A stretch of 64,000 nt of DNA from Candidatus Delongbacteria bacterium (GTDB lineage Bacteria; UBA4055): assembly GCA_016938275.1 (NCBI GenBank), contig JAFGUZ010000204.1, forward strand, positions 9,820 through 73,819. The letters are read 5' to 3'. The notes under the pieces are model-generated. The model worked only from the letters and a program-made list of their open reading frames with translations, was not told the DNA's origin and searched no databases. The position numbers and the translations under genes are program-made. This document shows positions 365-52,737 of the stretch, piece by piece (within the stretch, counting starts at the first letter, position 1; every line of letters starts with the position of its first letter).

Positions 365-496
365 TTGTAACGTTGAGTGTATGCGTAGTGGCGGATTTCG
401 GAACTTTTCGCTATCAAACCGAGATGGTGTTGGTGCGAGTCACAAACCTTGATATTTACTACTTACTCCGCCATTACGTATGACACATTGTTGGTG
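365..496 (-). other. attC-like imperfect palindromic recombination site (R''-L''...L'-R' layout), 3' of the DUF262 gene
   Basis: Minus-strand reading: CACCAAC-AAT-GTGT[C]ATACGTAATGGCGGA-(71 nt)-TCCGCCACTACGCATACAC-TCAAC-GTTACAA. The stem is 19 bp (plus-strand 377-395 with 467-486). It has two G-T wobbles that exist only on the plus (bottom) strand and one bulged base (G482). It starts 8 nt after the stop codon at 504-506. Confidence 0.45.
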
Positions 497-503
497 GTAG
501 TAA

Positions 504-2138
504 TTACTCAAACGAGTCATCACTTTCATTGTCTGTACTATATGGGTCATAATCAATTTCGCCTCTTATCTTAGTTGTTCCAGTCAAGTCAATAATTTCT
601 TCAGCAATTAATTGTTTTCTTTGATTAAAGAACGAATCATAATCAGAATTTTCTAAATGCTCAATACATTTTTCATCTATAAAGTGTGATTTCAATATCG
701 AGAGAAAATTGTTACTATGTGCTTTTTTGATATCGCTAACGATTTGAAGGAAATTTAATTCTTTAGTCTCTGTTCTACTACTAAATAGAATATTTACACA
801 TGATCTAGAATTCTTACTGTTAGACTCCTTATCTATAATATAGTGAAATTGATTTTTGTCAACACTTGATAATAGAGTATTGCTTTCATAAATAATGCCT
901 TCTATTAAATCAATTGGTTTTCTGTTTGCTAATAAAAGAGCAAAAGTCTTGCTATTTGCAAGATTTAATCTAAAATCATCATTAACAAAACGATCAATTG
1001 AAATCTCCTTTTCAATAGGTATTTCATCTATTTTTAATAATGCAAAATTCCGTATTAGTTCTAGATCCCTTGCATTTTGCCCTGTATTTGATGTGCCAAA
1101 ATGCCTTGAAATAGATGTTTTCCAAAACCACTGTTTTAGCTTTAGAATCTGACCCTCACTTGGTCGAGGCTGAAGATTAAAGAATTCCACCAAAAATGTC
1201 AATTGTAGACTGTATGGCAAGTATGCCGCTGTGGGTAGAAATATTTCATTGTGCAAGAACTCTATAGCGTTAATATACCCACTTGTACATTTTTCTGAAG
1301 CTAACTTTAAGTTTTCTGATGTCTCTGATCTTAAACGATCAATATTTTCTCTATTTATTCCTAACCCAGCACAGGCAGAAATATTCCTTAATATATGATT
1401 ATCCGAAATTTCAAAATAATTACGTTTCTGACATTCTCGCTTAATTTGTTCCAAAGCATCATTCAGGTCAAAATCACCTTTCCAAGTTGCAGCACGCATT
1501 AAATCAACAATTGTCAACTTTCGTCCAGTACTATTTATCCTTTCAAAAATTGGTGCTACCTCATTAATTGTCATTTCACCAATTTTAACAACGGCTATTT
1601 TATAATCTTTAATTGATCGTAATAATTTTTCTGCGTTTTTGTAGAATTTCTCTTTTTTAGGATGTGCTTCAAAGGCACTGCATTGTGAAATAAAATCACT
1701 AGTATTTAATAATTTATTCAAAGGAAAGTATTCAATCTTAAACTCATCTTTTGGATAAATAAATCGCTCCTTTTCCAAGTCAAAAGCAACATTCCAAAGA
1801 CTACGTGAATTTTTCCCATCCCAAAATAAGGTACCACATAGGCTAGAGACTCTTTGTTGTCCATCAAGCAAATAGTTAGTTGGATAAAAATCCGTCTCTA
1901 CATTTATTATTAGTTCTGCAATATTCCTTTCACTTACTAATTGTTCAGATGATTGCCATAATAGAATACTCCCTATAGGATATCCATTATAAATACTATC
2001 TAAGAGCTTAATCACTTCTTTTCTCTTCCAAACAAAAGGTCTTTGAAATTTCGGTAATCTGATGTCTCCAACTATAACACCTGTAACAATTTCTTCAATT
2101 CTTTGTATATCTGGTTTTGGGTCTTTATATTTCATCAT
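504..2138 (-). CDS. DUF262 (ParB/Srx-like, GmrSD/SspE N-terminal type) domain protein with no clear DUF1524/HNH module
   Basis: N-terminal motifs are LPKFQRPFVW, GYPIGSILLW and YLLDGQQRVSSL (the DGQQR signature of DUF262). The C-terminal half has only a weak FHYIID...VNILFSS relic where relatives carry the His-Me finger. The tail is acidic. The start overlaps the upstream gene by 14 nt. Confidence 0.75.
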   Translation of the reverse strand: MMKYKDPKPDIQRIEEIVTGVIVGDIRLPKFQRPFVWKRKEVIKLLDSIYNGYPIGSILLWQSSEQLVSERNIAELIINVETDFYPTNYLLDGQQRVSSLCGTLFWDGKNSRSLWNVAFDLEKERFIYPKDEFKIEYFPLNKLLNTSDFISQCSAFEAHPKKEKFYKNAEKLLRSIKDYKIAVVKIGEMTINEVAPIFERINSTGRKLTIVDLMRAATWKGDFDLNDALEQIKRECQKRNYFEISDNHILRNISACAGLGINRENIDRLRSETSENLKLASEKCTSGYINAIEFLHNEIFLPTAAYLPYSLQLTFLVEFFNLQPRPSEGQILKLKQWFWKTSISRHFGTSNTGQNARDLELIRNFALLKIDEIPIEKEISIDRFVNDDFRLNLANSKTFALLLANRKPIDLIEGIIYESNTLLSSVDKNQFHYIIDKESNSKNSRSCVNILFSSRTETKELNFLQIVSDIKKAHSNNFLSILKSHFIDEKCIEHLENSDYDSFFNQRKQLIAEEIIDLTGTTKIRGEIDYDPYSTDNESDDSFE

Positions 2139-3168
2139 TATCCTTTTTAAAAGTTAGAGGTTCAGTTACAACGACATTTTTATCAAAGATATCTTTGTGT
2201 CTTTTATCGAGTAAAAGCCTAGAGTTCATATTTTGAAGAATGTCATAATTGTCAATTAAATATTTGAAGTTTGGATAACCCAAATTTGGCTTATCTGAAT
2301 AGTAGTTGATAGGTGTTAAAGAGTTATAAAAAATTAGAACCAATTCATCTGTTGATAATTGAGCTCTAACAATATTGCAATAAAACTGTTTTTCTTTATC
2401 AGTTATAAGACTAGTTTTATGCACATATTTAAAAATATGGTACAAATTCCTAAAATAGTGCCCTAAATTATATTGATATAAATGAAAAAATCTTTCATAT
2501 TCGGACTTAACTATTTTCTCTTTGTCATCAATTGGTTCACTTATGAAATTTTCAATATCTTGATCTGATAAAGTCTGCAGATTCTTAATTTCTTCCTTTT
2601 CCAATTTTTCAAAGAATGAATGTTGGATGTCTCTTTTTGCTTTAAAATCAGAAACTTCGTTTGCGTCCAATTTAGTTAATGCGGAATATTTGAAGTATTT
2701 ACAATGACTTCTATATTTGAGATCTTTAATCGCACCTATAAAAAACTCTCTCTTTTCGTATGTTTCACCATCTATAGGTTTGATTTTTAGCTTATCAACA
2801 ATTTCGTTATGCAAAGAAAGTAATTGGAAAAAAGTATTCTCAAATCTTTGTTTTTTAAGAGTGTCATTTTGTTTAATAAACTCTCCTCTAGTTTCTTCTA
2901 ACTCTTCTCGTTGTAATTTTAGTTCTCTTTTTTGTAACAAAATTGTAAAAATGATACCTGCAAAAGCTAATGCAGAGAATAATGCATTGATTACACCAAA
3001 TTTGTCACCAAATAAACCTCTAGTTTCAACATCAGAGAGTTTAGAAAGATCTGTTGATACAATTTTATAGTCAATATATTGCCATGAAAAATACCAAAAT
3101 ATGACAACTAAAATAAATAAAATTAAACCAATAATTATATCTTTTGTATTTGAACTATCTGTTTTCAT
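2125..3168 (-). CDS. AbiC-like putative abortive-infection membrane protein (putAbiC family)
   Basis: Two N-terminal TM helices (IIIGLILFILVVIFWYFSW and INALFSALAFAGIIFTILLQ). The family-typical segment is GLFGDKFGVINALFSALAFAGIIFTILLQKRELKLQREELE. Later motifs are FFQLLSLHNEIV, YFRNLYHIFKYV and IVRAQLSTDELVLIFYN. The 347-aa size matches the AbiC family. Recognised from memory of the family, not by search. Confidence 0.65.
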   Translation of the reverse strand: MKTDSSNTKDIIIGLILFILVVIFWYFSWQYIDYKIVSTDLSKLSDVETRGLFGDKFGVINALFSALAFAGIIFTILLQKRELKLQREELEETRGEFIKQNDTLKKQRFENTFFQLLSLHNEIVDKLKIKPIDGETYEKREFFIGAIKDLKYRSHCKYFKYSALTKLDANEVSDFKAKRDIQHSFFEKLEKEEIKNLQTLSDQDIENFISEPIDDKEKIVKSEYERFFHLYQYNLGHYFRNLYHIFKYVHKTSLITDKEKQFYCNIVRAQLSTDELVLIFYNSLTPINYYSDKPNLGYPNFKYLIDNYDILQNMNSRLLLDKRHKDIFDKNVVVTEPLTFKKDNDEI

Positions 3169-3225
3169 TTTTATCTTCCTTTGCCATATTTAATTTATAT
3201 TTTATGTTCATTAGAATACTCTTAT

Positions 3226-3236
3226 TACCACCAACA
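3226..3236. repeat. Right arm of the 11-bp inverted repeat (partner 489-499); contains the core-site-like GTTGGTG on the minus strand
   Basis: Plus 3226-3236 taccaccaaca is the reverse complement of plus 489-499 tgttggtggta. The right arm lies 58 nt (repeat end 3226 to start codon 3168) upstream of the AbiC-like start. The left arm lies 5-15 nt downstream of the DUF262 stop. Confidence 0.6.
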
Positions 3237-3244
3237 TCTGTATT

Positions 3245-3268
3245 CCCTCCCAAATGGGAGGTATTTTT
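3245..3268 (+). terminator. GC-rich hairpin plus T-run on the plus strand (intrinsic-terminator-like, antisense to the cassette)
   Basis: Stem cctccc (3246-3251) pairs with gggagg (3256-3261) across a 4-nt loop aaat, followed by tattttt. There is no U-run on the minus strand. No plus-strand gene is annotated upstream, so the function is unclear. Confidence 0.3.
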
Positions 3269-3327
3269 CCATTAAATATTGCTGCTTATGGCGGGTAGCC
3301 GCCCAATATCGGCTTAAAAGTATCATT

Positions 3328-3612
3328 TTACTCTTCTCCTTCAATAATTAACCGATCCAAAGGATTCTTGAGCTTACCAAAAGCACTTTTAGTTACATGA
3401 TTGCAAATTTCTGTTGTTTTAGAACTTTGATCTCCTAACAATTCTTGAAAATATCTTAGATCAGTACCTTTTTCAAGTAAGTGCATATCAAATAAATGTC
3501 TAAGTGTGTGAATAGAAGCCCATCTATTTATACCAGATTCTACATACTCTGACTTCAAAGCTATTCTCTTTTCATCACTAAAAAGAATTTCACCAAACAA
3601 AATCTCTCTCAA
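3328..3612 (-). pseudogene. Tyrosine recombinase relic, IntI-like C-terminal fragment (about the last 90 aa), catalytically dead
   Basis: The sequence IHTLRHLFDMHLLEKGTDLRYFQELLGDQSSKTTEICNHVTKSAFGKLKNPLDRL matches box II of tyrosine recombinases (HxLRH...LLGH...TxIYTHV). His is replaced by Asp (LGDQ) and the nucleophile Tyr by Cys (EICNHV). The ORF opens at a TTG right after a stop, so the N-terminal two thirds are missing. The tail G..L.NPLDRL resembles integron-integrase C-termini. Confidence 0.75.
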
Positions 3613-4087
3613 AACTATATCCTATTATTCCAAATGAACAATATTATTTTAACAACTAAATCTAACTTTGTCAACGATAATTAACTTACAATTTACAACT
3701 CCAAATTGTAGCTAAATAATATTCCTTTTTTGCATACTCTTCATCATATTAGTTTTTCAAAAATAGTTTTCTTTAAAGTTTTATCAAATTTACCTCTATT
3801 TTTAAAATTTTGTATTCTGATTCTAAACCCCTTCAATAATTTGAAATTTTGATAGTAAATCAGTTCAATTACTATTTTTTTTAACAGCTTCTTTAGTTCA
3901 ATACCTACCTGATAGAGCATTCCTTAGTCGTAGTCTGCCAGCTAAAGTTTTAGCATAATCTCCAAGTTAATTTACACAATGAACTACACGGAGTTTAAAT
4001 TAAGCACCTCTACGTCGAAGCAAAGCGAAATGATTGGCGACAATTCAAACCCTAATAATTTCGTAATAATATTCACCAAAATAAAGG

Positions 4088-6295
4088 CTAAATCGGATAC
4101 TCTTTTGGTGGTATTTCGCCTAATAGATGAGTTACAAAATAATCCCACTTTTTTCTATGAACATAAGATATCCACAAACAATTATGATCAGCATTTGGTA
4201 CAATCAAGATATCAAAGTCTTTATTATACTCTATCAATTTGGCAGCCAAACGAGTTGCTTGAGTGGGCAGAACAATAGGATCAAGTTCTCCATGAATTAT
4301 ATAAAGTTTCCCTTCTAGTTTATGGCAATGTGAAATAGGAGATTGTTCTTTATAAAGCTTTTCATCATACTCTCCTAAATATATTTGTGAATACCAGTAG
4401 CAATGATTACTCCAATCATAAACACCGGAAACAGCAACTCCTACTTTATAGAAATCACCGTAATTAAACAGAGCATTTGCTGTATCAAAACCACCATGAG
4501 AAGCTCCAGTTATTCCAACTCTATCAAGATCCAGATAAGAATACTTTCGTGCAAGCTGTTTTATTGCATAGACATGATCAGGCAATCCACTATCTTTGAA
4601 GTTTTTATATGAGTGCAGGCTAAATTTCCTATTTCTCTTATTTCTTCCTCTACCATCAACCTGTATAACAATAAAACCAAGTTCTGCTAAAGCCTGAGAA
4701 TCATCTCTCCACAAACAGTCTAAAGAGGTGTGGATATATCCATGACCTCCGGTGTAACAATTATCTATTACTGGATATTTTTTATTAGGATCAAAATTTG
4801 ATGGTCTATGAATTAAACCATAAATTTTAGTTTGTTCATCACAGGCAGTTGCTTCAAATACTTCGGGCATAACAAATCCGGTTTTTTCAAGATCTTTTAG
4901 ATCAGATTCTTCTAAAAGCATCAGTTCTCTTCCATCTTTATCTCTAAGTTTGGTTATCCAGCCAAAATCCGGCAAATTATAATTGTCAATTATGTAATCA
5001 AAATTGGGAGAAAATTTAATATTGTGATCTCCTTTATCCGGTGTTAAAAGTTGTAAATTATTCCCATCAAGATCAACTTTATATAAATAGTGCAGATAAG
5101 GATTATGATCATCTTCTCGACCTCCGCAAGCTATAAAATACAATTTCCTTTTTTCTTCATCGCAATGAACAATCTCTGTTACAAAAAATTCTTTATCAGT
5201 GATTTTGTTTTTCAATTCGGCTTTTTGCGTATCATAGAGGTATAAATTACAATATCCGTCTCTTAAACTGCCCCAGATTATTTCATTACTGTTTTCTAAA
5301 ATTTTAACTATCATATTTTCAGGATCAATATACTCCTTGGAAGATTCATCAATAATATCCTTTGTAGTTTTTTCTGCATAATTGTATTCTTTCAAGATAT
5401 ATCGTTTAAAACCTTGTTTCACATCAAGATAGTATAGATAATTATTTTTTTCTAACCACAAATTCATTCCACATATATCTAGGAGCTGTTCTTTATTTAC
5501 TTTCGTTATCTTCATACTGTTAACATCCAGTAAGAAAATCTCAATAAGCGATCTATTATTGATAGCTAAAGATCTCTGCCAGCTTTTTGCTTTAGGCAAC
5601 AAACTGTCAGAAGGCATCGCCTGTACAAAAGTTATTTTTGAAGCCATTCTCATATCAATTCGTGAAAAACATAAAGTATTAGAATCACTAGACCAAGGAT
5701 GATCATAGTATTTAACTATTTCAAACACACCTTTCTTCGTAATTTCAGGCGAAGATAAATCATAACAATACTCAAAATCTTCTACACCATCATAAGTGAT
5801 TTGCCTTTCTTCTTTGGTTCTCAAGTTTCTTAAGTATAAATTATATTCTTTGGCAAAAATTTGAAATTTACCATCAGGACTGACATTTTCAAGTTGCTCT
5901 TTACTTTCATTTTTCTGTAAAGTTATAGCTAAATCAGTTAAGTTTAATTTATATTCTTTATCTTTGTAAGCGAATATAACTTCACTTCCGCAAAATGAAA
6001 TTAGAGTTAAATCCAGACTATCTGCCTCTAATGGCTTTTCTAAAAATTTGTTTAAATTTTCAGCGACTTTCTCAACATTAAAGGCTACTTGTTTAGTATT
6101 GGCTTCAACATCAATTAGCCAAAATTCTTTCTTCCCATCACGAAGATTATTTCTGTATATAAATTGATTGTTTTCTGAATTGAAGATTGGATCTACAGAG
6201 GTTTTGTAAATTCTTTTCTTCATATTTCGCCAAACAGCTTGTTCTGCTCTTTGGTAATTGGCGTATATAGGTGAAGTCTCTACCTTATTTGTCAT
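4088..6295 (-). CDS. Dipeptidyl-peptidase IV-like S9B serine peptidase
   Basis: 735 aa with a long N-terminal propeller region. The C-terminal alpha/beta hydrolase carries the nucleophile motif GITGASHGGF, Asp in IIHGELDPIV and His in NADHNC. Confidence 0.85.
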   Translation of the reverse strand: MTNKVETSPIYANYQRAEQAVWRNMKKRIYKTSVDPIFNSENNQFIYRNNLRDGKKEFWLIDVEANTKQVAFNVEKVAENLNKFLEKPLEADSLDLTLISFCGSEVIFAYKDKEYKLNLTDLAITLQKNESKEQLENVSPDGKFQIFAKEYNLYLRNLRTKEERQITYDGVEDFEYCYDLSSPEITKKGVFEIVKYYDHPWSSDSNTLCFSRIDMRMASKITFVQAMPSDSLLPKAKSWQRSLAINNRSLIEIFLLDVNSMKITKVNKEQLLDICGMNLWLEKNNYLYYLDVKQGFKRYILKEYNYAEKTTKDIIDESSKEYIDPENMIVKILENSNEIIWGSLRDGYCNLYLYDTQKAELKNKITDKEFFVTEIVHCDEEKRKLYFIACGGREDDHNPYLHYLYKVDLDGNNLQLLTPDKGDHNIKFSPNFDYIIDNYNLPDFGWITKLRDKDGRELMLLEESDLKDLEKTGFVMPEVFEATACDEQTKIYGLIHRPSNFDPNKKYPVIDNCYTGGHGYIHTSLDCLWRDDSQALAELGFIVIQVDGRGRNKRNRKFSLHSYKNFKDSGLPDHVYAIKQLARKYSYLDLDRVGITGASHGGFDTANALFNYGDFYKVGVAVSGVYDWSNHCYWYSQIYLGEYDEKLYKEQSPISHCHKLEGKLYIIHGELDPIVLPTQATRLAAKLIEYNKDFDILIVPNADHNCLWISYVHRKKWDYFVTHLLGEIPPKEYPI

Positions 6296-6414: not shown

Positions 6415-6674
6415 TTACCAAATCCAACACAATTCTGAATAAATCCCCTCTTTTGCTAGCAATTTGTTATGATTGCCAAGTTCTGCTACCTGATTGTTAT
6501 TGATAAAGCAATTTGATCAGCATTTATCAAGTTAGAAAGCCGATGTTCTATCATGATTACTGTTCGAGAACTGGCGATTTTGTTAATATCCTCCTGTGCC
6601 AGTTTTTCATTGATATTATCTAAATGGCTTGTAGTTTCGTCAATGATGATTAATTCTGGATTTTTCAAGAGCAA
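6415..6674 (-). pseudogene. ABC exporter ATPase relic (Walker B to C-terminus only, with a frameshift)
   Basis: The listed ORF gives LLKNPELIIIDETTSHLD...VIMIEHRLSNLINADQIALSI, then a stop. The normal C-terminus NNNQVAELGNHNKLLAKEGIYSELCWIW* continues in another frame (6415-6501). No Walker A, signature motif or TMD is present upstream, and the pseudo-start is a TTG directly after a stop. Confidence 0.7.
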
Positions 6675-9325: not shown

Positions 9326-9516
9326 AAATTCGTAATTTCTCCATTTTCTTTAATTTTCATTAGTTTTCCTTCTGCATTACTGATCTTCTCTTTACAAAGT
9401 TTAAGTAACATTTGTCCCTCTTCATACATTTTCAATGTATCATCTAAATCTATATCCCCTTTTTCCATTTTCTCAATAATTTCGGTCAATCTCTTTACAG
9501 CTTCTTCATATTTCAT
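9322..9516 (-). CDS. xseB: Exodeoxyribonuclease VII small subunit
   Basis: 64 aa. YEEAVKRLTEIIEKMEKGDIDLDDTLKMYEEGQMLLKLCKEKI is the typical XseB helical hairpin. Confidence 0.8.
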   Translation of the reverse strand: MKYEEAVKRLTEIIEKMEKGDIDLDDTLKMYEEGQMLLKLCKEKISNAEGKLMKIKENGEITNL

Positions 9517-9528
9517 ATTTCACTCCAT

Positions 9529-13423: not shown

Positions 13424-14748
13424 TAAGATCTCCTTCCTTGAAGTTTTCCAGTAGATAAAAATCCGTCATAATGATGCATAAGAAGATACGACTCTATCTT
13501 AGCTAATGTATCTAAAGCAACACCAACGATAATGATTAGACCAGTACCGCCAAAGAATGAAGCTAAATTATAAGATACACCTGGAAAGAAATTAACCACA
13601 AGATTTGGCATAATTGCTATCACTGCTAAAAATAGAGAACCTGGTAATGTTATTCTGCTTACAACAAAATCTAAATAATCAGATGTTTCTTTTCCGGGTT
13701 TTAAACCTGGTATAAAACCATTACCTTGTTTTAGATTATTACTAATATCCTCTGTATTGAAAGCAATAGCTGTATAAAAGTAAGTAAAGAATACAATTAC
13801 AAGAACGTATATTGCCATATAAGAATAGCTGTGATATGCGAAAATATTTAAAATAAATTCACGTACAGGACTTTCTTCTGGCATTAACTGAGCCATTGTA
13901 CTTGGTACAAACATTATTGATTGAGCAAAAATAATAGGCATTACACCTGCGATATTCAATTTAATTGGTAGAAAAGATGCCTGACCACCTTGTACTCTAC
14001 CAGCAATTTGTCTTTTTGCATAGTGAACACTAATTTTTCTCAATGCTTGAGTTAAAGCTACTACAGCAGCAATCGCACCAAGCATACCTACCCAAAGTAG
14101 GATCTCAATAATTATCTCTCTATTATTATTCTGTAATTGAACAACTTCCTCTAGTACAGCTTGTGGAAATCTTGCCACAATACCAAGAGTAATGATCAGG
14201 GATATTCCCTGACCAATACCCTTCAAAGTGATCTGTTCACCAAGCCACATCATAATTACAGTACCTGTAGACAAGATTAACATTGTCATAATCTGAAAGA
14301 AGAGACCAGGATTAGGTACTACCATAACTCCTGAAGAATTCATACTCACCAACAATACAGAAACTCCATAAGCTTGAGCTGCAGATAAAAGTACTGTTCC
14401 ATATCTGGTGTATTGAGTAATCTTTTTTCTTCCCTCTTCATCTTTTTGCATTTTTGCAATAGTTGGAAACACCGTTCCTAATAATTGTATTATAATGGAA
14501 GCAGAGATGTAGGGCATAATCCCCAATGCAAAAATTGCTGCATTTGAGAAAGCTCCTCCAGTAAACATATCAAACATACCAAACAACGAATTTTGAGCTT
14601 GGCTGAAATGATAACTTAAAGCTGTTACATCTATCCCCGGCAACGGGATATGTACACCAACCCTACAGATGAAAAGGATTAAAAGAGTAAATATAATCTT
14701 TTTTCTTAGTTCAGGTATCTTGAATACGGTCTGTAATTTTTCGATCAT
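13423..14748 (-). CDS. secY: Preprotein translocase subunit SecY
   Basis: 441-aa polytopic membrane protein at the canonical position between rplO and adk. Confidence 0.95.
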   Translation of the reverse strand: MIEKLQTVFKIPELRKKIIFTLLILFICRVGVHIPLPGIDVTALSYHFSQAQNSLFGMFDMFTGGAFSNAAIFALGIMPYISASIIIQLLGTVFPTIAKMQKDEEGRKKITQYTRYGTVLLSAAQAYGVSVLLVSMNSSGVMVVPNPGLFFQIMTMLILSTGTVIMMWLGEQITLKGIGQGISLIITLGIVARFPQAVLEEVVQLQNNNREIIIEILLWVGMLGAIAAVVALTQALRKISVHYAKRQIAGRVQGGQASFLPIKLNIAGVMPIIFAQSIMFVPSTMAQLMPEESPVREFILNIFAYHSYSYMAIYVLVIVFFTYFYTAIAFNTEDISNNLKQGNGFIPGLKPGKETSDYLDFVVSRITLPGSLFLAVIAIMPNLVVNFFPGVSYNLASFFGGTGLIIIVGVALDTLAKIESYLLMHHYDGFLSTGKLQGRRS

Positions 14749-15400: not shown

Positions 15401-15907
15401 TTAGTTGTAAAGTTTTTCTCTTGAGATTCCTCTTGATTTTAGGAATTCATTTTCACTTTTGATGCTCTTTAAACCTTCAATAGTCGCCTTAACAATATTG
15501 TGGGCGTTGGAACTTCCTTTAGATTTTGAAAGGATATTGTGATATCCCGCACATTCTAAAACCGCTCTTACAACCCCACCGGCAATAATACCAGTACCAG
15601 CTGCAGCAGGTTTAAGAAGAACTTTTGCTGCTCCAAATTTAGCTTCAATTTCATGAGGTACAGTTTGAGCGGAAGTAAAATTTACACTTATTAAATTTTT
15701 CTTAGCTTCTTCAATACCTTTTGCAATTGCATCAGTTACTTCAAGTGCTTTCCCTAGTCCATGACCAACACGTCCGTTTCCATCACCAACAACTACAATC
15801 GCATTAAAACTGAAGTTTTTACCACCTTTTACAACTTTTGTAACACGGTTCAGTTTAACAACTTTTTCTATGAACTGAGGAGCATCATCTTTTACAATTT
15901 TTGCCAA
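15401..15907 (-). CDS. rpsE: 30S ribosomal protein S5
   Basis: [36 protein letters not shown]; TTG start. Confidence 0.95.
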
Positions 15908-15931
15908 AATAGTCCTCTACCAATAATTTTT

Positions 15932-16318
15932 TTAGAATTTAAGTCCACCTTTTCTTGCACCTTCTGCAAGAGCTTTTACTCTACCATGGTATAGGTAACC
16001 ATTACGATCAAATACAATGGCACTAATATTTGCTGCAAGTGCCTTCTTAGCAAGTTCTTCACCTATCAAAGTAGCAATATCAGTTTTAGTCTTAATATTT
16101 TCGTTAGAATCTATCATTGACTTAATTTCTTTCATATTGCTATTGCAACTTACGATAGTGTTACCATCATTGTCATTTATGATCTGAGCATAGATGTGAC
16201 AATTTGATCTAAAAACACTTAGTCTTGGCATCTCTGCCACACCAAATAAGTTTCTACGAACGTGCTTTTTTCTTCTTATTCTTGCAGCTACTTTTTTAAG
16301 TTTAGGTTTTTTGTTCAT
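15932..16318 (-). CDS. rplR: 50S ribosomal protein L18
   Basis: RLSVFRSNCHIYAQIINDNDGNTIV...FDRNGYLYHGRVKALAEGARKGGLKF. Confidence 0.95.
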   Translation of the reverse strand: MNKKPKLKKVAARIRRKKHVRRNLFGVAEMPRLSVFRSNCHIYAQIINDNDGNTIVSCNSNMKEIKSMIDSNENIKTKTDIATLIGEELAKKALAANISAIVFDRNGYLYHGRVKALAEGARKGGLKF

Positions 16319-16361
16319 TTAATAACCTCAAATCCTCATCGAACTTTTTATTGACGCTGCA

Positions 16362-16916
16362 TTACTTCTTCTTAGCAGCTTTACCAGCTTTTCTTATAAT
16401 TCTTTCATCTTTATATCTTAGACCTTTACCTTTGTAAGGTTCTGGTTTTCTAAGACTTCTGATTTTAGAAGCAAACATACCAAGCAATTCTTTATTGATA
16501 CCGCTTAACTTCAAAGATGAAGTATTACTTACCGGTTGAGTTGCTTCAGCTGTGATTCCTTGTGGAATCATAACATAAATAGGGTGTGAATAGCCAAGAG
16601 AAAGTATCAAATAATTACCGGATACTTCCATTTTGTAACCAACTCCATGAAGAATAAGTTCTTTTACAAAACCTTCAGAAACCCCTGTTACTATATTGCT
16701 AATTAAAGCTCTTGTAGTACCATGTATGGCTTTGGAAAATTTTTCTTCATTTTTTCTGGCAACAATTATTTCTTCATTTTCTACGTTTATAGTAACGTAG
16801 TCGGTAAATGCCATACCTAAAGTTCCTTTTGGTCCTTTTGCAGAGATATGATTTCCCGTAATTTCAACTGTAACTCCTTTAGGGATGCTTACAGGTTTTT
16901 TTCCTATTCTTGACAC
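16362..16916 (-). CDS. rplF: 50S ribosomal protein L6
   Basis: (M)SRIGKKPVSIPKGVTV...PEPYKGKGLRYKDE; GTG start. Confidence 0.95.
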   Translation of the reverse strand: MSRIGKKPVSIPKGVTVEITGNHISAKGPKGTLGMAFTDYVTINVENEEIIVARKNEEKFSKAIHGTTRALISNIVTGVSEGFVKELILHGVGYKMEVSGNYLILSLGYSHPIYVMIPQGITAEATQPVSNTSSLKLSGINKELLGMFASKIRSLRKPEPYKGKGLRYKDERIIRKAGKAAKKK

Positions 16917-16932
16917 GTGAAACTCCTAATTA

Positions 16933-17331
16933 TTACCAAACACTACAAAGTACTTCACCACCAACATTCATCTTTTTCGCAGTTTTGTTACTGATAACAC
17001 CTTTTGATGTTGTCATAATAGCGATACCGAAGTTGTTTTTCACTCTTGGCAGCTTGTCAACACTTGCGTAAACTCTCAAACCTGGCTTACTAACACGTTT
17101 AATCTCGTTAATAACGCTGTTTCCATACACATCATATTTTAGATAAACCCTTAAGATACCTTGTTTTGTGTCTCTAATGTTGTAGTATTTTTCAACATAA
17201 GCTTCGTCAAGTAATATCTTAACAATTTTTCTTTTTAAATTTGATGCCGGAATATCAACATATTTATGTTTTGCTTTTGCAGCGTTTCTGATTCTGGTTA
17301 ACAAGTCGGCAACTGGATCAGTCATCGTCAT
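16933..17331 (-). CDS. rpsH: 30S ribosomal protein S8
   Basis: DPVADLLTRIRNA...GGEVLCSVW. Confidence 0.95.
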   Translation of the reverse strand: MTMTDPVADLLTRIRNAAKAKHKYVDIPASNLKRKIVKILLDEAYVEKYYNIRDTKQGILRVYLKYDVYGNSVINEIKRVSKPGLRVYASVDKLPRVKNNFGIAIMTTSKGVISNKTAKKMNVGGEVLCSVW

Positions 17332-17365
17332 ACTTGTAATTCTCCTTAAGTGAATAAAATAAATA

Positions 17366-17551
17366 CTACCAACTAGCTTTTCTTACACCAGTTAATTCTC
17401 CAGCAGCAGCCAATTGTCTGAAACAAATTCTGCAGATACCAAACTCATTCATGTAACCTCTAGGTCTTCCGCATCTGTTACATCTGTTATACTGACGTAC
17501 CTGGAACTTGTTAATTTTTTTAGCTTTGGCTACCATAGACTTTTTTGCCAT
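17366..17551 (-). CDS. rpsN: 30S ribosomal protein S14, type Z (zinc form)
   Basis: 61 aa with CNRCGRP...CRICFR. Confidence 0.95.
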
Positions 17552-51416: not shown

Positions 51417-52737
51417 AATAGTTCTCTACATACTAATTTTAGCATCATTTATTTTTCTGACTGGACAACAAATCAAGTTTGATTCTATTGGACAGTACAA
51501 GCAATTTCCAGATGGAAGAATAAAAATTAATGAAGTTAAAAAATTCCAATACGGTATTTTTGGAATAAACTGTGATGAGGGAATCATAGGAAGTGATAAA
51601 AAATCTGTTGAGCTAAAAGGTAATGTAGTTTTGTGGGATACTTTGAGATATATTACCTGCGACAAGGCTAATATTACAGAATATTCTGATATGCATAGGG
51701 CTTTTTTTAATGACAATGTTTTTGTAAGTCAGGATAGCGTAAGAATATGGGCAAATTCAGGTAGATTTGACGAATTGACTCATTTCACAGCCTTTAATGA
51801 TTCTATCGAAGTTCGATACGATATTTATCCTTCAGCTATGTATTGTCAAAGTATGACATATAATGATGATAGCGGAAAATTACAGTCTAGTAGGACTGAA
51901 AATATTGTTTATATCGATTCTGTTTATAAGGTGACTCTGACCAGCAATGAGGTTGAATACAATACTAAAACGAATATTTTATCAATTAACAAAAAACATG
52001 ACTATTTTGTGGAGCGGATTGAAAAAGGTAGATTCGAACCTAATATTATAAAAAAATTGAACTATAAACAATTCCTTCAATTTCCTACAGATTCACTTGA
52101 TAGAGTTAGAATAAGCACTATAAAATCAAAAGCTTTTTTCAATACGGGAGTTTACGAGTTTATTAGTAGGGTTATGGTAGTTCATACAGATTCATTGGAC
52201 AAAATAACAGTTTTAAAATGTGATACTATGCATATAGATCAAAATATTGAAAGAGTAAACTTCAATGGCAATTTCTCACTTAGCAACGATTCTGTAAGTA
52301 TTGTTGGTGGTAAGGCTGTTCTTAATTGGAAGAAAAACCAGTTGATTGTATACAATCAACCAAAGCTTTCTTTTAATGATAATGAAGCTATTGGTGACTC
52401 ATGTCATATTTTCTATGATAAAGCAGGTTTGGATGAGATCAATATTTATGGAAGTGGTAAGCTATTAAATCCTGTTAGGCAGGGTTTAAATCTGATGAAT
52501 ACAATAGATGGTAGATATATCTCTATGGATTTTGAGGATAATGATCCAAAATCTTTAAAAGTGATAAGACAAGCACAATGTACGTACTACTCTGAATCGG
52601 ATTCTCTGGGTAATTATGCTAAAAATATCGCATCTGGAGATACTTTATTTCTAGAGTTTGATAAAAAAAAGCTTTCAAAAATTACTGTTATTGGTGGAGT
52701 AAAGGGTAGATATCTTCCGGGAGTAAAAAATGAATGA
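51409..52737 (+). CDS. OstA/LptA-like domain protein (possible LptC/LptA-type LPS transport component)
   Basis: N-terminal anchor followed by beta-rich sequence. VELKGNVVLWDTLRYITCDKANI resembles OstA_N repeats. It overlaps lptB downstream, which is the usual lptC/A-lptB order. Confidence 0.45.
   Translation: MNKIVLYILILASFIFLTGQQIKFDSIGQYKQFPDGRIKINEVKKFQYGIFGINCDEGIIGSDKKSVELKGNVVLWDTLRYITCDKANITEYSDMHRAFFNDNVFVSQDSVRIWANSGRFDELTHFTAFNDSIEVRYDIYPSAMYCQSMTYNDDSGKLQSSRTENIVYIDSVYKVTLTSNEVEYNTKTNILSINKKHDYFVERIEKGRFEPNIIKKLNYKQFLQFPTDSLDRVRISTIKSKAFFNTGVYEFISRVMVVHTDSLDKITVLKCDTMHIDQNIERVNFNGNFSLSNDSVSIVGGKAVLNWKKNQLIVYNQPKLSFNDNEAIGDSCHIFYDKAGLDEINIYGSGKLLNPVRQGLNLMNTIDGRYISMDFEDNDPKSLKVIRQAQCTYYSESDSLGNYAKNIASGDTLFLEFDKKKLSKITVIGGVKGRYLPGVKNE

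Follow-up and report, generated by a model that had tools for sequence, protein, structure and literature searches.

The segment 365-3612 of the window, by which we mean the whole 64,000-nt stretch of contig analysed here, is best read as what is left of an integron-like platform for gene capture, consisting of a dead recombinase stub and one intact cassette; we put the probability of this reading at about 80%. On the minus strand the order is recombinase relic, 93-nt junction, 5' cassette boundary, putAbiC gene, GmrSD_N gene and attC site. The cassette implied by the first-pass annotation spans 371..3234 (2,864 bp), and every feature coordinate given there was borne out when the window sequence was read again.

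The attC site, the cassette boundary and the cargo

The attC site occupies 365..499 on the minus strand, where it gives a profile match, folds, and ranks first in a structure scan. Read on that strand it consists of R'' (TAC)CACCAAC (reverse complement of 490-499), the spacer AAT, the L'' arm (467-486), a variable loop (396-466), the L' arm (377-395), the spacer TCAAC and R' GTTACAA (reverse complement of 365-371). An nhmmer profile built from 14 attC sites of unrelated genomes matches 365-499 with 30.2 bits (E=1.5e-8) over model positions 3-130 of 133; the next match has E=5.8, and no shuffled window exceeds 6.9 bits. A purpose-written scanner for AAC...stem...GTT structures, run over both strands of the whole window, ranks 365-496(-) first with a score of 13.8, followed by an unrelated site at 10.5. 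The attC-like site proposed earlier to follow the gene pair is thus the best attC-shaped structure in 64 kb.

The two arms form a 19-bp stem, which on the plus (bottom) strand carries one extrahelical G (482) and two G.T wobbles. The site is an imperfect palindrome that folds as a single strand and has the AAC/GTT cores and the extrahelical base of attC sites. When the excised form is rebuilt, an additional 10-bp R helix is gained and the bottom-strand fold changes from -17.7 to -26.9 kcal/mol (a gain of about 9 kcal/mol). In both the present and the rebuilt excised form, the bottom strand folds more stably than the top strand.

A covariance model (R1) built from eight short attC sites of about 68 nt gave no match in the window, whether its filters were left at default or switched off. 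R1 was judged too narrow, since most long sites escaped it as well and the sites of L256, L258, L272, L274, L293, L169 and L170 (the L numbers denote loci in other genomes) were not recovered either. A scan of the window with Rfam, which holds no attC family, delivered no matches. A MAFFT alignment of long attC sites yielded no RNAalifold consensus, since the arms of these sites are out of register.

The 5' boundary of the cassette, G|TTGGTGGTA, lies at 3226..3235 on the minus strand, with the crossover between 3235 and 3234, and is complementary to the cassette's own R''. On the plus strand the inverted repeat reads GTTGGTGGTA at 490-499 and TACCACCAAC at 3226-3235, and the complementarity extends to 11 nt (489-499 versus 3226-3236). 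The upstream copy is located 58-67 nt ahead of the ATG of the putAbiC gene (3168). Agreement between R'' and the R' now present at 365-371 is limited to GTT. In the window the 10-mer is present three times, whereas 100 dinucleotide shuffles predict 0.02 occurrences; one of the three, the copy of GTTGGTGGTA at 52303, falls within a coding sequence and was attributed to chance.

Nine distinct close copies of the pair were compared, and six have a GTT.../...AAC inverted repeat at the same places but with differing sequences. The variants are TACCACCAAC in the window, TACCGCCAAC in L084, TACCTCCAAC in L086, CCGGTAAC in L088, GCCACTAAC in L169 and TTCCGATAAC in L170; the changes are compensatory and follow the pattern TACC[A/G/T]CCAAC. 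In L169 and L170 the pair is located between attC repeats on both sides (about 130 nt and about 190 nt), and the 5' boundary in L170 agrees with the pair's own R'' and not with that of the site before it. A covariance model places an attC site in L084 whose end coincides with the boundary (28.6 bits, E=5.7e-5). The first-pass annotation was therefore right about the crossover at G|TT: the complementarity over 10-11 nt is real, it is maintained by compensatory changes in homologous cassettes, and the same pair occurs inside cassette arrays. Absence of the repeat from homologous pairs had been named as an observation that would count against an integron origin, and the repeat is in fact kept in other genomes. 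The three other copies of the pair show no attC signature, which indicates that the pair also occurs outside cassettes.

It is extremely improbable that the element is instead a small non-autonomous transposon with GTTGGNGGTA ends (10-bp inverted repeats) and that the hairpin behind the second gene serves as a terminator or in regulation. Terminal inverted repeats would also co-vary, because both ends are bound by one enzyme, and a stem-loop behind a stop codon occupies the usual place of a terminator. Yet the repeats always begin with GTT and end with AAC while the remainder differs fully among copies, and the downstream site fits the attC profile across 128 positions. Repeated attC sites on either side of the same pair in L169 and L170 also speak against a transposon, as do the missing T-run after the stem on the coding strand and the lack of a visible target-site duplication.

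The first gene of the cassette (2125..3168, minus strand) encodes a 347-aa membrane-anchored protein of the putAbiC family (PF16872, 64.1 bits; cut-off 22), with PADLOC matches to AbiP (3e-11) and AbiC (5e-9). Homologues with 72-83% identity adjoin a GmrSD_N gene in other genomes. The second gene (504..2138, minus strand), which overlaps the first by 14 nt, encodes a 544-aa DUF262/GmrSD_N protein (PF03235, 105.7 bits; cut-off 33.2) that matches the PADLOC model PDC-M55C over its full length (1.5e-88). PF03235 is its only Pfam domain (residues 14-217), and no nuclease domain (DUF1524/HNH) was detected in residues 218-544.

The conserved putAbiC plus DUF262/GmrSD_N module is a predicted abortive-infection-type anti-phage system. 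With GmrSD, lactococcal AbiC/AbiP and PDC-M55 it has in common the N-terminal PF03235 domain, the PF16872 domain and the full-length PDC-M55C match. GmrSD type IV enzymes combine DUF262 with DUF1524 (His-Me finger), whereas the second cassette gene holds DUF262 only and falls outside that definition; of PDC-M55, no component is matched by the putAbiC protein. Two-gene anti-phage cassettes such as Sucellos and Toutatis are known from sedentary chromosomal as well as mobile integrons (10.1101/2024.07.02.601686). The window cassette resembles them as a small two-gene defence-type module within a single cassette but differs in gene content, in its large size (2.86 kb) and in host phylum, and its own role in defence is a prediction.

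The recombinase relic and its relatives

The relic of a tyrosine recombinase lies at 3328..3612 on the minus strand, within a 94-aa open reading frame starting with TTG, and comprises the C-terminal ~75 residues of the catalytic domain. Its C-terminus reads ...TTEICNHVTKSAFGKLKNPLDRLIIEGEE. The catalytic tyrosine is replaced by cysteine (EICNHV) and the catalytic histidine by aspartate (LLGH to LLGD). No remnant of the N-terminal part of a recombinase was found in any frame of 3201-4300. Directly upstream of the reading frame lies a match to a sigma-70-like promoter (3646..3674, minus strand; TTGACA-17-TAAAAT with TG) that agrees with 11 of 12 consensus positions; this predicted promoter could give read-through transcription into the cassette.

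The relic matches PF00589 with 32.8 bits. TIGR02249 is the top NCBIfam model (62 bits, positions 245-315 of 315), with XerD at 55 bits; the XerC/XerD models as a group give 45-55 bits, with cut-offs of 330-335. Among solved structures VchIntIA is nearest (46 bits), followed by XerA (33) and XerD (32). A profile of the 49 nearest full-length relatives gives 106.8 bits at profile positions 301-371 of 374. The family assignment of the relic is based on only about 70 residues, the stretch that tells presence from absence of the IntI-specific domain being deleted. Relatives were found by exhaustive HMMER search; a word-indexed homologue search returned the relic alone.

The first-pass annotation described the tail of the relic as resembling IntI rather than XerC/D. 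This holds in so far as VchIntIA is the best structure and TIGR02249 the best NCBIfam model, but ...SPLD.L is widespread in Xer-like recombinases, and the nearest relatives fall below the IntI cut-off and lack the IntI-specific insertion. Because of these last two properties, the relic is, on sequence comparison, a leftover of an integron-like recombinase and not of a canonical IntI. An origin from a Xer chromosome-dimer recombinase (XerC/D/A) is not supported, as the relatives score below all Xer cut-offs, adjoin attC arrays and do not stand in a housekeeping context.

We consider it very unlikely that the relic stems from a canonical IntI with the additional domain (ALxxKYP...DPRSG...RHH segment) and that its C-terminus merely resembles the insertion-less family. 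The top rank of TIGR02249 and of VchIntIA would fit such an origin, and the additional domain is unreadable in the relic since the discriminating region has been deleted from it. Identity to canonical IntI proteins, including the FCB-group L315, is however 41-46% (55-65 bits), compared with up to 63% (up to 88.6 bits) to insertion-less array-associated proteins. The nearest recombinase is that of L249 (63%), and six further array-associated recombinases (L252, L251, L260, L258, L256 and L297) follow with 51-62% identity (76-85 bits). The co-oriented layout and the short spacer also fit the insertion-less family.

In this family the nearest relatives of the relic lack the IntI-specific insertion and are immediately followed by attC arrays of the same orientation in Bacteroidota. 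The insertion region measures 16 residues in the family member P0006 versus 57 in VchIntIA, and the best family member scores about 230 bits against TIGR02249, for which the cut-off is 265. The additional domain near patch III that defines canonical IntI is missing from the nearest full-length relatives; in the relic this region is deleted. For the N-terminal extension of the family only sub-threshold matches to HARP and DUF5710 were obtained.

A co-oriented attC site follows downstream in seven of the eight closest recombinases for which at least 1 kb of downstream sequence is available, and all covariance-model hits at such loci (17/17) are downstream and on the same strand. The co-oriented, 'inverted' layout noticed in the first reading is correct for the window and is the usual arrangement in the family of the relic. 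The arrays contain up to eight or more attC sites, occur in several isolate genomes as well as in MAGs, and bear the G|TT crossover signature. The family includes the recombinases of L260 (Flavobacteriaceae bacterium S0862) and L263 (Winogradskyella ursingii HL4150). Between adjacent sites of an array, R'(n) is complementary to R''(n+1) at four of four variable positions in 8/16 pairs (permutation mean 0.9), and to its own R'' in 0/16.

For nine intact platforms, a sequence complementary to the extended R'' of the first detected attC site was located 34-320 nt past the recombinase stop, with a length of 9-10 nt in eight of them and 7 nt in L274. The corresponding distance in the window is 93 nt. 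This junction (3236..3327, minus strand), presumably the remnant of the attI side, contains two G+C-rich hairpins (3290-3304 and 3246-3261) and no match to the attC profile, and no conserved attI motif could be defined. The hairpin at 3246-3261 was rejected as a terminator, its T-run being on the opposite strand.

The locus might alternatively be an isolated cassette (SALIN) that a trans-acting integrase placed into a secondary GTT/GWT site (attG), the stub being left over from an unrelated element. Such an origin would explain a single attC site without a working integrase and the position of the element between housekeeping genes; cassettes standing alone outside integrons are frequent, and insertion into attG has been demonstrated (10.1101/2022.09.11.507474). 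We nevertheless regard it as unlikely, as the stub belongs to a recombinase family found upstream of co-oriented attC arrays, and orientation and stop-to-boundary distance (93 nt versus 34-320 nt) are as in intact platforms. That both features adjoin each other by chance is unlikely.

Neither a second attC site nor an intact recombinase was found in about 72 kb of the contig. The genes that flank the element encode housekeeping peptidases. A synteny search with the neighbouring DPPIV gene delivered no relative above 39% identity, and in the nearest relative by SecY (83%) synteny is gone after rplQ. In consequence of this lack of a close relative sharing the locus, no orthologous locus with an intact or an empty site was found.

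Proposed history and relation to known integrons

From these features we infer that a circular cassette of 2.86 kb was captured while its attC site was folded as a single strand, the bottom strand being the plus strand of the window. In the folded site R'' TACCACCAAC would have been paired with R' GTTGGTGGTA. Strand exchange at G|TT would then have split the R' box, so that TTGGTGGTA opens the cassette (from 3234 downwards) and the G closes it (371), joined to TTACAA of the former insertion site. The platform would have been of the type found in Bacteroidota and other FCB bacteria, with a recombinase gene co-oriented with the cassettes and an insertion point tens to hundreds of bases past its stop codon. 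The recombinase gene would afterwards have lost about three quarters of its length (the 5' part) and both the catalytic tyrosine and histidine. With these losses the platform should be unable to act in cis; since the attC site is intact, a related recombinase acting in trans could still release the cassette.

With canonical integrons (the Vibrio cholerae superintegron, class 1) the window shares a G|TT-bounded cassette, the R''/L''/L'/R' boxes, an extrahelical base on the R''-proximal arm, the stabler bottom strand and a 5' end complementary to the cassette's own R''. Complementarity of R'(n) with R''(n+1) is likewise common to canonical integrons and the arrays of related loci. In contrast to canonical integrons, the family of the relic lacks the IntI insertion near patch III, the window and its relatives have a co-oriented recombinase gene and an R-box pairing extended to 9-10 bp, and the recombinase in the window is a dead stub. 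For the chromosomal integrons with 'inverted integrase' in Treponema spp., the integrases are reported as IntI with the additional domain, which the family of the relic does not have. As in SALIN and CALIN elements, the window contains a single attC site without a functional integrase, so IntegronFinder would probably call the locus SALIN. It differs from these by a recombinase relic in the position of the platform, of a family that the intI_Cterm profile would miss. Integrase pseudogenes beside CALINs are rare (15/279; PMC4889954).

The cited passages define IntI by the additional domain, which they report to be required for activity (Messier & Roy 2001 via PMC9668308; PMC4889954). Recombinases without this domain that occur close to attC sites have been discounted as IntI (PMC4889954). 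The chances appear even that relic and attC site represent an unrecognised integron-like class in Bacteroidota/FCB, without the IntI domain and with an N-terminal extension of ~100-200 residues, co-oriented arrays and insertion 30-300 nt past the stop. In this reading the insertion-less family would act on attC sites.

The window locus alone is a fossil. Coming from the MAG of an FCB-group candidate phylum with a relationship to Candidatus Delongbacteria, it extends integron-type recombination to that phylum, and the two-gene putAbiC plus DUF262 module is an addition to the defence-type integron cassettes. If the proposed class exists, current tools that require intI_Cterm would assign such arrays to CALIN or SALIN, and integrons of this lineage would be under-counted. 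If these enzymes recombine attC, which standard attI x attC recombination assays would test directly, they would constitute a second structural solution to the recognition of single-stranded attC sites, and integrons in Bacteroidota would be far commoner than reported.

Locus layout and genomic setting

In its SecY the host shares 83% identity with a protein labelled Candidatus Cloacimonadota and 70-75% with ones labelled Candidatus Delongbacteria; KSB1, Calditrichaeota, Zixibacteria and Bacteroidetes give remoter matches. This places the low-G+C host in a candidate phylum of the FCB group. The element is encoded on the minus strand and consists of a 94-aa ORF that is the C-terminal relic of a tyrosine recombinase (3612..3328), a spacer of 159 nt to gene 1, gene 1 (putAbiC, 347 aa, 3168..2125), the overlapping gene 2 (GmrSD_N, 544 aa, 2138..504) and a structured region of 135 nt (499..365), past which no additional small co-oriented ORFs were found. 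The coordinates and sequences reported for this locus in the first-pass annotation all proved correct.

Housekeeping-type S9 peptidase genes are located on either side, and the element splits three clustered genes for S9-family peptidases (735, 668 and 677 aa; window 4088-6295 (-) and L001:12861-17545). Between a DPPIV-like peptidase gene and cheR, a 62-aa ORF (6486-6674 (-)) resembling a C-terminal fragment of an ABC-transporter ATPase (...LIIIDETTSHLD...) is probably a further gene relic. An independent assembly of run SRR13394436 has contig breaks on both sides of the relic ORF, 28 nt ahead of it and 22 nt past its stop (window 3200-3700; end of L004, start of L002); low coverage, strain variation or a repeat may be the cause. 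Records of the relic protein are confined to two contigs, both of 93.8 kb.

The attC site and its two-gene cassette

Three matches to the 10-mer GTTGGTGGTA lie in the window against 0.02 expected. Two of them are at 490-499 (+) and 3226-3235 (-); the third exact copy, at 52303-52312 (+) within a coding region (…IVGGK…), is taken as chance. A 19-bp stem is made by arms 377-395 and 467-486; on the plus strand it contains a single extrahelical G (482) and two G.T wobbles. Both wobbles become A.C mismatches on the minus strand, and folding is thus better on the plus (bottom) strand. In coding-strand order the site reads (TAC)CACCAAC, AAT, L'' arm, 71-nt loop, L' arm, TCAAC and GTTACAA. When the circular form is rebuilt by joining the cassette's own R'' ... 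G to the 5'-boundary TTGGTGGTA, a 10-bp R helix is gained and the bottom-strand fold energy falls from -17.7 to -26.9 kcal/mol.

A G+C-weighted scanner (AAC, 4-6 nt, anchored imperfect stem, 5-8 nt, GTT) ranked 365-496 (-) first on both strands of the 64 kb, scoring it at 13.8 and the next unrelated site at 10.5. For an nhmmer profile, 14 attC sites of about 130 nt each were taken only from loci of the relic's recombinase relatives, none of them linked to the gene pair. The profile matched the window at 494->368 (-) with 30.2 bits (E=1.5e-8), spanning model positions 3-130 of 133; the second-best match had E=5.8, and 30 shuffled windows reached at most 6.9 bits. A covariance model of eight short sites (~68 nt) gave no match in the window, but it missed most long sites too, and this result is therefore read as a lack of sensitivity.

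Homologues of putAbiC (72-83% identity) and GmrSD_N (56-68%) occur in Arenibacter palladensis, several Bacteroidota MAGs and metagenome contigs, and the pair is a conserved two-gene module, its cargo function predicted to be anti-phage. The inverted repeat GTT.../...AAC is present in six of nine distinct close copies, with arms 1-34 nt past the stop codon and 24-97 nt ahead of the first ATG. Downstream and upstream arms are TACCACCAAC and GTTGGTGGTA in the window, TACCGCCAAC and GTTGGCGGTA in L084 (A. palladensis), TACCTCCAAC and GTTGGAGGTA in L086, CCGGTAAC and GTTACCGG in L088, GCCACTAAC and GTTAGTGGC in L169, and TTCCGATAAC and GTTATCGGAA in L170. The repeats of the window, L084 and L086 are one compensatory pair apart.

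Homogeneous attC repeats (~130 nt in L169, ~190 nt in L170) flank the gene pair on either side, which places it within an array there. In L170 the 5' boundary fits the R'' of the pair itself (…CGATAAC) and differs from the R'' one site earlier (…CGCTAAC), exactly as expected of G|TT crossover. A covariance-model attC match in L084 (28.6 bits, E=5.7e-5) stops at the boundary GTTGGCG. A G+C-rich insert of about 110 nt, without an attC profile match, lies past the R'' of that cassette (L084:7640-7760), and the attC may be disrupted. Three copies (L331, L332/333 and L334-336) show no inverted-repeat or attC signature; the pair thus occurs outside cassettes too.

The recombinase relic and its family

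The PF00589 match of the relic is confined to the last 52 profile positions. The first-pass annotation had found its tail closer to integron-integrase C-termini than to XerC/D tails, but ...SPLD.L is common among Xer-like proteins, including those of Patescibacteria and archaea, and is not diagnostic alone. TIGR02249 (integron integrase) is the best curated model (62 bits, reaching the very end of the model; XerD 55 bits), and VchIntIA the best solved structure (46 bits; XerA 33, XerD 32). However, an exhaustive HMMER search delivered much closer relatives (55-62% identity, up to 83 bits), which lack the IntI insertion; the relic is IntI-like, but its source family is without the IntI domain.

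Against a profile of 49 full-length relatives the relic scores 106.8 bits at positions 301-371 of 374. Across all frames of 3201-4300 this was the only match; the gene has thus cleanly lost its 5' three quarters. Among the positions invariant in the family, the relic's catalytic tyrosine is changed (Y->C), as are the His of LLGH (H->D) and four others. Directly upstream of the truncated ORF is a near-consensus sigma-70-type promoter match (3646-3674 (-), TTGACA-17-TAAAAT with TG); since the gene has lost its 5' part, its original promoter cannot be this one.

The relatives are not canonical IntI. All 49 fall under the TIGR02249 cut-off (first member 195 bits versus 265; best E-value 2.4e-68), and their VchIntIA match falls into two pieces. 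P0006, in a Bacteroidia MAG (L249) and with 63% the most similar to the relic among the fetched loci, has 16 residues in place of VchIntIA's 57. Array-associated members carry (A/G)KGxKDR about 60 residues ahead of HTLRHS, where canonical IntI proteins in the same scan have an ALxxKYPxA...WxWxxVFP...DPRSG...RHH segment.

Association of the family with attC arrays

At least eight canonical attC sites directly follow the P0006 gene in the same orientation. Among 80 loci fetched by the family profile and scanned strand-blind, seven of the eight closest with at least 1 kb of downstream sequence have attC-shaped sites downstream on the same strand and almost none upstream; covariance-model matches in family loci were downstream and co-oriented in 17 of 17. 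Array loci include the isolate genomes of Aquiflexum sp., Flavobacteriaceae bacterium S0862 and Winogradskyella ursingii. Adjacent sites carry the integron signature: R'(n), in its variable half, is a perfect complement of R''(n+1) in 8/16 detected neighbour pairs and of its own R'' in 0/16 (permutations: mean 0.9, maximum 5).

Nine intact platforms carry, 34-320 nt past the recombinase stop, a complement to the extended R'' of their first detected attC (9-10 nt long in eight, 7 nt in L274); in the window it is located 93 nt past the relic stop. The form common to cassette 5' ends is GTTnnnnnnAAT. In orientation and spacing the window therefore repeats the layout of these platforms. Two short G+C-rich hairpins are located between relic and cassette boundary (3246-3261 and 3290-3304; CCTCCCAAATGGGAGG, GGCGGGTAGCCGCCC), and the equivalent region of L258, L274 and L289 contains hairpins too.

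The attC profile match, the G|TT boundary, the homologous cassettes and this layout bear out the proposal of a decayed integron-like platform with a single two-gene cassette, to which we assign a probability of about 0.8. Insertion of the cassette at a secondary site beside an unrelated stub is the main rival and appears improbable; isolated cassettes (SALIN, attG insertion) are known, as are integrase pseudogenes near CALINs, two-gene defence cassettes, integron cassettes in general, attC folding, G|TT crossover and co-oriented 'inverted' integrases (PMC4889954, PMC9024848, 10.1101/2022.09.11.507474, 10.1101/2024.07.02.601686).

In L249 the recombinase stop codon is directly followed by three 26-nt direct repeats (TTGTTACGCAACTCATATAGTGAATT, spacing 34 nt; 9425-9518), which may bind the integrase as part of an attI-type site. 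The same array holds two copies of an identical ORF-less mini-cassette (13765-13848 and 17327-17410) with complementary 14-nt ends (GTTGGGCAGAAATC...GATTTCTGCCCAAC), and AT-rich tandem repeats of about 110-120 nt between two attC sites (15860-16400).

Cury et al. (PMC4889954) noted few insertion-less recombinases near attC, each with <3 sites, and concluded that they are not IntI; IntegronFinder 2.0 found almost no complete integrons in Bacteroidetes, and Smyshlyaev et al. called the insertion 'not fully conserved' within their integron-like subgroup. The limited library searched held no description of arrays served by insertion-less, co-oriented recombinases. Such recombinases, of 380-540 aa and directly upstream of arrays of canonical attC sites, were observed in Bacteroidota isolates and MAGs (L249:8001-17410, L258, L260, L263, L256, L272, L274, L289 and L293). 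Tools requiring intI_Cterm would label these arrays CALINs, and the systematic tie of the insertion-less family to attC arrays is the part deserving follow-up.
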